Source: Patescibacteria group bacterium
GTDB lineage: Bacteria; Patescibacteriota; Patescibacteriia; UBA1558; GWA2-36-10
Length of the DNA: 64,000 nucleotides
Assembly (NCBI GenBank): GCA_041665505.1
Contig: JBAYIR010000001.1
Coordinates: forward strand, 83,108-147,107
Reading direction: 5' to 3'
Shown: positions 58,752-59,483 of the stretch, in pieces
How positions within the stretch are numbered: the stretch's first letter is position 1
Layout: each line of letters opens with the position of its first letter
The notes under the pieces: model-generated
Databases searched by the model: none
Seen by the model: the letters and a program-made list of their open reading frames with translations, nothing else
What the model was told of the DNA's origin: nothing
Translations under genes and position numbers: made by a program

Positions 58752-58826
58752 GCCGTCATAGCTCAGTGGTAGAGCACTTCCATGGTAAGGAAGGGGTCCG
58801 CAGTTCAAGCCTGCGTGACGGCTCCA
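58752..58826 (+). tRNA. tRNA-Thr (anticodon GGT), CCA encoded
   Basis: GCCGTCATAGCTCAGTGGTAGAGCACTTCCATGGTAAGGAAGGGGTCCGCAGTTCAAGCCTGCGTGACGGCTCCA; anticodon loop ATGGTAA. Confidence 0.8.
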
Positions 58827-58946
58827 TTCGACTCCGTCCCGCTAAAGCGGGACTTCGCTCATGGTCTTCATCCTCACCGCCATAGGCGGTTCGGATTGCG
58901 ACCACTTTTCTAGGAGTCGAATGCCCTGAGCGAAGTCGAGGGGCAT
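58824..58946 (+). ncRNA. conserved structured tRNA 3'-trailer element, copy 3 (divergent, with compensatory stem changes)
   Basis: TTCGACTCCG then hairpin gtcccgc-taaa-gcgggac (vs gttctgc-tc-gcagaac in copies 1/2), conserved ACTTCGCTCA...TGAGCGAAGT pair, TGGTC/GACCA stem carrying an inserted ccgcc-ata-ggcgg hairpin, perfect 11-bp closing helix CATTCGACTCC/GGAGTCGAATG. Confidence 0.5.
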
Positions 58947-58952
58947 AATAAA

Positions 58953-58978
58953 ACCACCCTTGGGGGTGTTTTTTTGTT
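58953..58978 (+). terminator. terminator ending the tRNA-Thr plus trailer transcript
   Basis: ccaccc-ttg-ggggtg followed by T7. Confidence 0.55.
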
Positions 58979-58990
58979 TGTTGTATTCAT

Positions 58991-59019
58991 TTGACAAAAT
59001 ATATAAAATATGTTATTAT
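58991..59019 (+). promoter_or_regulatory. near-consensus promoter TTGACA-17-TATTAT driving cassette E
   Basis: ttgaca 58991-58996, tattat 59014-59019, 17-nt spacer; ~100-nt GC-moderate leader with gggg-N13-cccc hairpin. Confidence 0.5.
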
Positions 59020-59123
59020 ATATAGTTCGTAATTCCTATTCGTATGAGTAGGTGGCTCTGAATGAGCAACGGGGTTTAGGCTTCTTTCCCCAACCAAGGA
59101 AGCGTGTTCTTTGAGGAGGCTGT

Positions 59124-59414
59124 ATGGCCAAGCAATTTGATATCACTGGTGGTCCCTCGCGGGAAGAGCTCTTTGACGCTCTGCGCCTGAGGCATGAGAA
59201 CAGGAAGCCTGTCTTCCACGTGCCGTACATCAGAGGAGGCTGTTTCGTAGTCAGTGTCGATGCCATCGGCATCGAAGACGGCAGTGGCGACAACTGGCTG
59301 TTGCAGCTACATGACCCTAATGGTCTTCTCGGGGCCAATCATTTGAAGGCCTACTTCAACACTGTCACGCGCAGGGGTTGGATGAAGCCCTTGGACTTGA
59401 AGCCCTTGGACTGA
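59124..59414 (+). CDS. high-GC small protein, 96 aa (foreign cassette E)
   Basis: GAGGAGG 4 nt before ATG; MAKQFDITGGPSREELFDALRLRHENRKPVFHVPYIRGGCFVVSVDAIGIEDGSGDNWLLQLHDPNGLL; no family recognised; antisense ORF 59036..59338 rejected. Confidence 0.5.
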   Translation: MAKQFDITGGPSREELFDALRLRHENRKPVFHVPYIRGGCFVVSVDAIGIEDGSGDNWLLQLHDPNGLLGANHLKAYFNTVTRRGWMKPLDLKPLD

Positions 59415-59428
59415 CGACAACATTGGTG

Positions 59429-59483
59429 CCGCGCGCAGAAGTCATCGGACTTCTGCGCGCGGGCCACAATTACTTTTTTTTTC
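59429..59483 (+). terminator. long GC-rich hairpin terminator of cassette E
   Basis: gccgcgcgcagaagtc-atcg-gacttctgcgcgcgggc then T9 about 8 nt later. Confidence 0.5.

Follow-up and report, generated by a model that had tools for sequence, protein, structure and literature searches.

Structured RNA directly upstream of, or directly after, a gene takes several described forms. The Escherichia coli thrS leader contains two anticodon-arm-like hairpins, and the replicase operator hairpin of MS2 and Qbeta contains the AUG. Riboswitches of the preQ1-II, SAM-II, and guanidine-III classes place a pseudoknot beside the ribosome-binding site. The lariat-capping ribozyme upstream of I-DirI makes a ribozyme-plus-endonuclease unit. 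Theta ribozymes are minimal ribozymes of the hepatitis delta virus (HDV)-like kind, lying directly 3' of gut-phage transfer RNA (tRNA) genes, where 4.5% of the tRNAs encode CCA (PMC10879173), and T4 SegB is a free-standing GIY-YIG homing endonuclease near tRNA genes (PMC2330249). The locus considered here, island E, lies on contig JBAYIR010000001.1 of a Patescibacteria group bacterium (assembly GCA_041665505.1), within a stretch of 64,000 nucleotides (nt) at positions 83,108 to 147,107, hereafter the window. It combines a tRNA-Thr gene; a structured RNA element that follows the tRNA, termed the trailer; and a GC-rich cassette encoding a 96-amino-acid (96-aa) protein behind a structured leader RNA.

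The leader, about 100 nt long, consists in order of a hairpin, P1; a short hairpin, P2; an H-type pseudoknot, whose stem S2 arises by pairing of the loop of stem S1 with a downstream strand; a conserved GUUC; and a hairpin at the start codon, which in the window holds the 3' end of the Shine-Dalgarno (SD) sequence together with the start codon (Table 1). An initial annotation, made from the sequence alone, had described tRNA-Thr with its trailer and terminator, a promoter (TTGACA-17-TATTAT), a leader of about 100 nt, GAGGAGG, the 96-aa open reading frame (ORF), and a 15-bp GC stem, all of which are present at the locus. The GGGG/CCCC pairing that it placed in the leader is likewise real, but as stem S1 of the pseudoknot rather than as a simple hairpin.

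Comparison across the gene family carries this structure. The set comprises 46 loci: 44 fetched genome loci and two from contig look-ups. The family splits into two subgroups, with the window gene in subgroup 1. In 45 of 47 family gene copies the ATG is preceded, at a distance of about 100 nt, by a strong sigma-70 promoter (at least 9 of 12 positions matching), and the DNA from promoter to ATG is kept at the nucleotide level in both subgroups; nearly every gene copy has a leader of this kind. A covariance model (R2) built from six subgroup-1 leaders, the window excluded, finds the island E leader as its sole match in the 64-kb window (71.6 bits, E = 4e-15); over the 46 loci it finds 32 leaders, each immediately upstream of the ORF and on the same strand. 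Conversely, a covariance model from subgroup 2 alone recovers subgroup-1 leaders at the correct position, and RNAalifold run on subgroup 2 independently predicts P1, P2, S1, and the start hairpin. Fitting of these alignments used P1, P2, S2, and the start hairpin; S1 pairs although it had no part in the fit. Paired cells amount to 92.4% in subgroup 1, with both-sided changes in 23 of 27 pairs, and to 98.7% in subgroup 2 (17 of 26 pairs). None of 500 shuffles reaches the observed values in either subgroup, and slid controls are about 45% paired.

In 31 of 45 leaders the loops of P1 and of the start hairpin have identical sequences (permutation p < 0.0002). The shared sequences are GUAU, GUUAU, GGAU, GUAC, and GGAC, and both loops change together across the family. 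Searches of Rfam 15 gave no match overlapping the leader, either at gathering thresholds or at E <= 10. With a covarying structure between promoter and start codon, the element belongs to the general kind of structured cis-regulatory 5' leaders.

Three other accounts of parts of the leader were considered. Kissing of the identical loops fits poorly: self-complementarity holds for GUAC and GUAU but fails for GGAU and GUUAU, and four-nucleotide loops are too short; the idea is retained only as a caveat. P1 as a palindromic DNA operator is disfavoured by its frequent G-U pairs, which suggest pairing at the RNA level. Finally, S2 plus GUUCUUU was flagged by a terminator scan as a possible attenuator, but the stem is weak and the U-tract interrupted, making this unlikely.

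Some further observations concern the leader and its surroundings. Some gene callers translate the leader DNA as an N-terminal extension of the protein ('MGRWL...'). The leader match at one locus (L039, 2585-2687; 64 bits) is some 320 nt upstream of the GPSRE motif, which may reflect a longer N-terminal variant or a second, degraded copy. A motif of about 28 nt, TTCGAACATCGTCCCAGGTKYGGAGCA, recurs in subgroup-2 intergenic spacers, at times just upstream of the cassette promoter (L017 at about 1313; L020 at about 2428; L021 at about 1400 and 4142; L042 at about 2816).

The encoded protein is a real gene product under purifying selection. GC content at the three codon positions (GC1/2/3) is 0.57/0.39/0.69, a clear periodicity that answers the initial annotation's caution that the ORF might be antisense noise; host GC3 is 0.19-0.29. 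Against the allele of a sister strain, the ratio of nonsynonymous to synonymous divergence (dN/dS) is 0.24, and synonymous changes prevail within the invariant motif. A database search returned 86 homologues of about 90-130 aa, and all those with a named source come from Patescibacteria or Parcubacteria metagenome-assembled genomes (MAGs); a profile search of 1.84 billion cluster representatives found 1131 family members at E <= 1e-3. The family has the invariant motifs GPSREELFDALRL, EDGSG..W, and YFNT..R.GW. It has no match in Pfam, NCBIfam, PHROGs, or PADLOC, and the best PDB hit by profile search has E = 0.16. The AlphaFold model is confident (predicted local distance difference test score, pLDDT, 87.6) and shows a single helix against an antiparallel sheet. 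Foldseek comparison of this model with the PDB and BFVD gave no significant structural neighbour (best E 0.03); CBF-beta and the RnlA N-terminal domain, which came up in that search, are not meaningful relatives. The family is large, Patescibacteria-specific, and unannotated.

Three observations on the gene are of separate interest. One genome (L043, positions 3010 and 3667) has a tandem gene pair, with a promoter and leader for each copy. In a few subgroup-2 genomes (L022, L031, and relatives) the gene lies between the L21 gene and recR/dnaB, which is the neighbourhood of island B in the window. The 11-nt sequence from SD to start, GAGGAGGCTGT (59113-59123), is exactly repeated at 59233-59243, in the variable part of the ORF; this may be chance.

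Compositionally the cassette is foreign to its setting. The window is about 34% GC overall and carries housekeeping genes and six tRNAs; the genes around the cassette are an aldolase gene, tRNAs, and other cellular genes. Six ORFs in its four GC-rich islands (A, B, C, and E) share one signature, with GC 0.52-0.58 and GC3 0.65-0.71. Across the family, subgroup-1 genes are GC-richer than the host at most loci, and subgroup-2 genes are host-like in composition. An exact 17-nt direct repeat, corresponding to a T-rich terminator tail, flanks the cassette; it has just two copies in the window, where 0.07 are expected by chance. Neither the neighbouring genes nor the position of the gene are conserved in other genomes, the largest neighbour cluster occurring in 3 of 45 loci. 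The initial annotation's picture of a self-contained, compositionally foreign unit therefore holds, given its own promoter, leader, ORF, and terminator, its GC3 of 0.69, its flanking repeat, and the lack of a conserved neighbour. The proposed 15-bp GC terminator needs one qualification: the stem is perfect, but the T-run begins 11 nt beyond it, so the terminator scan made no call there. A Logan contig and an ENA contig carry sequence identical to the window at the cassette junctions, which are therefore real and not an assembly artefact.

The same locus is kept in a sister strain from another sample (L169, L172), which allows a direct comparison. The housekeeping proteins DnaB, RecR, YbaB, and L21 are 96-99% identical to those of the window, with synonymous divergence (dS) of 0.13-0.34, whereas the 96-aa ORF is 70% identical in amino acids, with dS 0.86. 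The sister allele is also GC-rich (GC3 0.66). Around it, the cassette promoter is 100%, the leader 92%, the terminator 93%, and the trailer 98% identical in nucleotides. In island B (23446-24791, against L169 3174-4535), gene B1 has 58-60% amino acid identity and dS 0.95, and B2 is 85% identical. Islands B and E are hypervariable cassettes within a conserved backbone.

The other islands resemble E in outline. Five further GC-rich single-gene units, A1, A2, B1, B2, and C (10798-13037, 23446-24791, 33891-34613), have GC3 of 0.65-0.71, and an AT-rich promoter and a GC-stem terminator of its own belong to each unit examined. Pfam, PHROGs, and PADLOC give no match to any of the five. In B2 a signal peptide is joined by a membrane helix at the C-terminus. 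Judged by eye, the promoter and leader of B1 are nearly unchanged in the sister strain.

Table 1. Features of island E and related elements of the window. Positions are those of the window; promoter coordinates are one base below the hand-count values.
Feature	Position	Strand	Remarks
Trailer after tRNA-Val	23229-23352	+	Abuts GC-rich island B
Trailer after tRNA-Lys	27890-28000	-	Followed by ordinary dnaB, no GC-rich cassette
tRNA-Thr (anticodon GGU), encoded CCA	58752-58826	+	ARAGORN; Rfam tRNA model, 63.7 bits
Trailer, solo copy, about 120 nt	58827-58946	+	Fold z-score -5.5
Intrinsic terminator of tRNA-trailer transcript	58955-58978	+	Stem 58955-58968 plus T-run; terminator scan
Direct repeat, copy 1, TGTTTTTTTGTTTGTTG	58967-58983		17 nt, exact
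Sigma-70 promoter	58991-59019	+	TTGACA 58991-58996, 17 nt, TATTAT 59014-59019; extended -10 TG; 11/12 match
Structured leader RNA, conserved	59030-59132	+	Covariance model, covariation, twin loops
Leader P1	59035-41/59046-52	+	Loop GUAU
Leader P2	59055-58/59064-67	+	
Leader pseudoknot stem S1	59071-74/59088-91	+	GGGG/CCCC
Leader pseudoknot stem S2	59080-86/59097-59103	+	
Start-codon hairpin	59118-21/59126-29	+	Loop GUAU
Shine-Dalgarno GAGGAGG	59113-59119	+	
96-aa ORF, uncharacterised Patescibacteria family	59124-59414	+	Homologues, codon periodicity, dN/dS, AlphaFold
15-nt tandem duplication, longer C-terminus (KPLDL-KPLD)	59383-59412	+	Without it in sister strain
Cassette terminator	59429-59481	+	Perfect 15-bp GC stem 59429-59443/59448-59462, 11-nt spacer, T9 (59473-81)
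Second small terminator	59483-59512	+	CAGCTATTTTAGCTG plus T-run (59483-59497); overlaps repeat copy 2; terminator scan
Direct repeat, copy 2	59496-59512		Inside second small terminator

Island E is given rather better than even chances of being three mutually independent things side by side: a tRNA-Thr gene, a solo trailer, and a self-contained single-gene unit whose leader exerts translational control. A trans-acting factor that recognises both identical loops would gate translation at the start-codon hairpin, with the pseudoknot as a scaffold presenting the loops. Most simply, that factor would be the encoded 96-aa protein, which would repress its own synthesis through operator mimicry, much as in thrS and the MS2 replicase operator. 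The leader fold and the co-variation of its loops are established by comparison of sequences; binding of the leader by the 96-aa protein, and repression, are what we infer. The cassette would be GC-rich because it circulates horizontally among Patescibacteria. Its coding part would have been swapped for an anciently diverged allele, whereas promoter, leader, and terminator stayed near identical between close strains; these conserved flanks are probable homology arms for recombination. Its place beside the trailer would reflect insertion into a terminator-bounded intergenic spacer, with no functional link.

Several points weigh against parts of this account. Subgroup 2 has no SD sequence, and its AUG lies in the stem instead of the loop, so details of occlusion differ between the subgroups. 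The 96-aa protein is near neutral (isoelectric point 6.9; family median 8.15) and its predicted fold matches no known RNA-binding fold, which weakens the autoregulation step. The loops are quasi-palindromic (GUAC, GUAU), and loop-loop contact, an alternative-pairing switch, or a small-molecule riboswitch could give the same co-variation. Exact look-ups with the 96-aa protein and the neighbouring 294-aa protein gave identical copies from the same genome only, and no empty-site genome; the argument for insertion thus comes solely from the direct repeat and composition. Moreover, GC3 is high in both sister alleles and in many hosts, and compositional selection is still a candidate cause in place of repeated transfer.

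The alternative that survives best, although an unlikely one, is that the leader is a riboswitch: the pseudoknot would bind a small molecule or ion, the start-codon hairpin would serve as the expression platform, and the 96-aa protein would act on or bind the ligand. An H-type pseudoknot adjoining the ribosome-binding site, strong covariation with conserved junction nucleotides, and a protein that is not basic would all suit such a device, as would the subgroup-1 S1 stem, in which an SD-like GAGG pairs with an anti-SD-like CCUC. That SD/anti-SD logic is missing from subgroup 2, however, and the co-varying, identical P1 and start loops have no role in a simple aptamer-plus-platform model. Nor does the leader match any Rfam family even at E <= 10, and the cassette has no linked gene for metabolism or transport.

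The trailer is a second structured RNA. It comprises a helix, H1 (UUCGACUC/GAGUCGAA); a hairpin, H2; a UGGUC..GACCA hairpin with an insert; and a 3' hairpin, H5 (UGCCCU..GGGGCA). In addition, a CGCUC is complementary to the loop sequence GAGCG. The window copies share the features used to define the family: UUCGACUC right after CCA, then CGCUCAUGG, GUCGAAUG, and YGAGCG..GUCGAR blocks, with helices H1, H2, and H5. The same element follows the transfer-messenger RNA (tmRNA) gene in a Vogelbacteria MAG. A pattern of four conserved blocks retrieved at least 120 stretches from metagenomes, and the counts given here for these copies are among the matches listed. Host contigs range from 30 to 71% GC. 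CCA precedes the trailer in 114 of 121 copies (94%), and in 81 copies a gene called by ARAGORN ends within 4 nt of it. The commonest preceding genes are tRNA-Leu (14), tmRNA (13), and the tRNAs for Met (8), Ala (7), Asn (7), SeC (6), and Ser (5). Downstream, on the same strand, an ORF of about 90 aa encoding a GIY-YIG protein follows 48 of the 109 trailers with enough sequence (44%); all eight such ORFs compared with PF01541 match it. The whole window contains no GIY-YIG ORF, so its trailer copies are solo.

An alignment of the three window copies, the L040 copy, and 52 metagenome copies has 94% of cells paired, with strong covariation in H2 and H5. The H1 and CGCUC/GAGCG pairings are consistent but show no variation, in part because both were fixed by the search pattern. 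The trailer also contains G-U pairs, a sign that it is RNA of the tRNA strand that folds. Rfam models, including those of ribozymes, gave no match to two trailers at E <= 10; a search of 2.9 million viral contigs found no trailer; and the literature searched yielded no description of such a tRNA-flank/GIY-YIG RNA. Readings by eye as HDV-like, hammerhead, kink-turn, or tRNA-like RNA were misfits or could not be settled. An HDV-like or theta ribozyme identity was set aside for want of a model match and because the long variable linker that separates the UGG..CCA hairpin from the 3' strand of H1 is unlike the compact HDV core. The trailer constitutes a separate, widespread family of predicted structured RNA that, in many bacterial phyla, directly follows the CCA of tRNA and tmRNA genes. 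From this placement it may be a processing RNA that acts where tRNA and trailer meet, or else the RNA component of a GIY-YIG element of tRNA flanks.

Two structural variants were seen among the metagenome copies. They involve the loci L052, L065, L122, L155; L050, L067, L081, L128, and L146. Some trailers form tandem copies, the second of which lacks a preceding CCA. In many, the 3' hairpin carries nested repeats of an NNNN-GAGCGA...GAGUCGA-N'N'N'N' module, with apparent tandem G-A pairs.

A joint reading of both RNAs is bolder, and as a whole doubtful. The leader would be the operator of a new, Patescibacteria-wide group of self-regulating, RNA-hairpin-binding proteins, and the trailer would be both a new processing RNA and a launcher of GIY-YIG mRNA. 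In this reading the trailer may define the mature CCA 3' end of tRNAs and tmRNA, by self-cleavage or by guiding RNase P; together with a hitch-hiking GIY-YIG gene, it may also be a selfish element that exploits tRNA promoters.

Are the trailer and cassette linked, as the initial annotation proposed? It suggested that they form one system, or that the trailer marks a preferred site of integration. Locally this has some appeal: islands B and E, two of the four, do abut two of the three window trailers, and both arrangements are kept in the sister strain. Furthermore, trailers elsewhere accompany genes for GIY-YIG nucleases, enzymes that might in principle give rise to a hot spot of recombination. 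The wider comparison speaks against it. When the same ORF was sought beside trailers at other loci, 45 of 46 family loci had no adjacent trailer; the exception is the window itself, and at one more locus a trailer occurs at a distance of 2 kb. Just 4 of 46 loci have a tRNA in the roughly 300 nt upstream of the family gene. Nor does GC-rich DNA adjoin trailers elsewhere: a GC rise of at least 0.10 downstream occurs at none of the 67 trailers with enough flank, among the matches listed, and the recurrent partners are instead the GIY-YIG genes. Within the window, no cassette accompanies the tRNA-Lys trailer, neither a tRNA nor a trailer lies near islands A and C, and no GIY-YIG ORF occurs. Orientation differs as well, island B being transcribed towards its trailer and island E away from it, and the repeat that flanks the cassette is a terminator tail, neither tRNA nor trailer sequence. 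These counts indicate that the link is not general, and both versions of the proposal are quite improbable. A local hot spot downstream of trailers may exist in the window lineage, but two cases are too small a sample to show it.

Familiar classes of mobile cassette fit no better. An integron gene cassette is disfavoured by the consensus promoter of its own, the single ORF, and the lack of an integrase; no specific search was made for an attC fold. A tRNA-targeting integrative island was likewise rejected: the repeat is the terminator tail TGTTTTTTTGTTTGTTG and not tRNA sequence, and the unit of about 530 nt has no integrase.

A phage moron, or what is left of a prophage or plasmid, is a very unlikely identity for the cassette. 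A promoter and terminator of its own and deviant composition, the defining traits of morons, are both present, and the window holds five other GC-rich single-gene units with the same GC3. The location is not that of a phage or prophage, however: the neighbours are housekeeping genes, the protein has no PHROG match, and 2.9 million viral contigs contain no relative of the 96-aa protein and no trailer. Moreover, the subgroup-2 genes are host-like in composition.

The view that the ORF is noise in a GC-rich structured RNA, where 55% GC would be expected to give long ORFs on either strand and where a minus-strand ORF of 100 aa indeed occurs at 59036-59338, is refuted by codon periodicity, by dN/dS and the dominance of synonymous changes in the invariant motif, by a family of more than 1,100 clusters with a confident AlphaFold model, and by the SD, promoter, and terminator, all on the plus strand.

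Two features of the flanking DNA stand apart from these questions. Upstream, a 30-nt direct repeat, 83% identical (58626-58655 and 58735-58764), duplicates the first 13 nt of tRNA-Thr along with the 16 nt preceding it; the copies enclose an insert of about 79 nt with a GC-rich hairpin (CCCCGCACAGTCCTGCGGACTTGACGGGG), and the arrangement resembles a small insertion accompanied by a lengthy target duplication. Downstream of the cassette, at 59621-60928, is the gene for a 435-aa secreted protein with 240-nt tandem repeats and dockerin-like motifs (CDHNGDG.RNLSDV); its 5' end has just 61% nucleotide identity to the sister strain.

Island E is of more interest than a plain foreign insert. Two well-supported RNA motifs, both apparently undescribed, occur here beside an unannotated protein family. 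Patescibacteria (the candidate phyla radiation) account for a substantial part of bacterial diversity, and most of their small proteins are unannotated; a family of more than 1,100 clusters with its own strongly covarying leader offers a direct experimental handle for work on protein-RNA binding and with reporters. The twin-loop leader is an unusual regulatory design, in which one loop copies the surroundings of the start codon. If the trailer truly processes tRNA 3' ends, or is the RNA of a mobile element of tRNA flanks, it bears on tRNA maturation and on the selfish use of tRNA promoters. Finally, the GC-rich cassettes could mark gene exchange in these symbionts, since they are hypervariable between strains whose housekeeping proteins are 97-99% identical.

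How does the locus compare with the systems already described? Like phage morons, the cassette carries a single gene, is served by a promoter and terminator of its own, and differs strongly in GC3 from the DNA around it; unlike them, it sits among chromosomal housekeeping genes, was not found in viral contigs, belongs to a Patescibacteria-wide family, and has a conserved regulatory leader. The leader shares with pseudoknot riboswitches (preQ1-II/III, SAM-II/V, guanidine-III) a compact, covarying H-type pseudoknot near the ribosome-binding site, but it lacks a model match and a ligand-related gene context and has the extra twin hairpins.

For the trailer, theta ribozymes are the nearest precedent, as structured RNA right after a tRNA gene that could define the tRNA 3' end. 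The trailer differs in its length of 95-190 nt, in matching no HDV or ribozyme model, in its 94% CCA among the matches listed, in residing in cellular rather than viral contigs (30-71% GC among the matches listed), and in its association with GIY-YIG genes. The window trailers, without a nuclease gene, depart from the SegB and I-DirI units; the family as a whole resembles them in having a small GIY-YIG ORF by tRNA genes and a structured RNA before the nuclease mRNA.

The autogenous operators, namely the E. coli thrS leader, the MS2/Qbeta replicase hairpin, and ribosomal-protein leaders (one of which, for L10, lies at 13159 in the window), are set apart from island E by its non-basic protein with no recognised RNA-binding fold, by a leader outside Rfam, and by the pseudoknot between its hairpins. 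In common with them, island E has a structured leader immediately before the gene, an SD and AUG held within a hairpin, and two hairpins with the same loop sequence.

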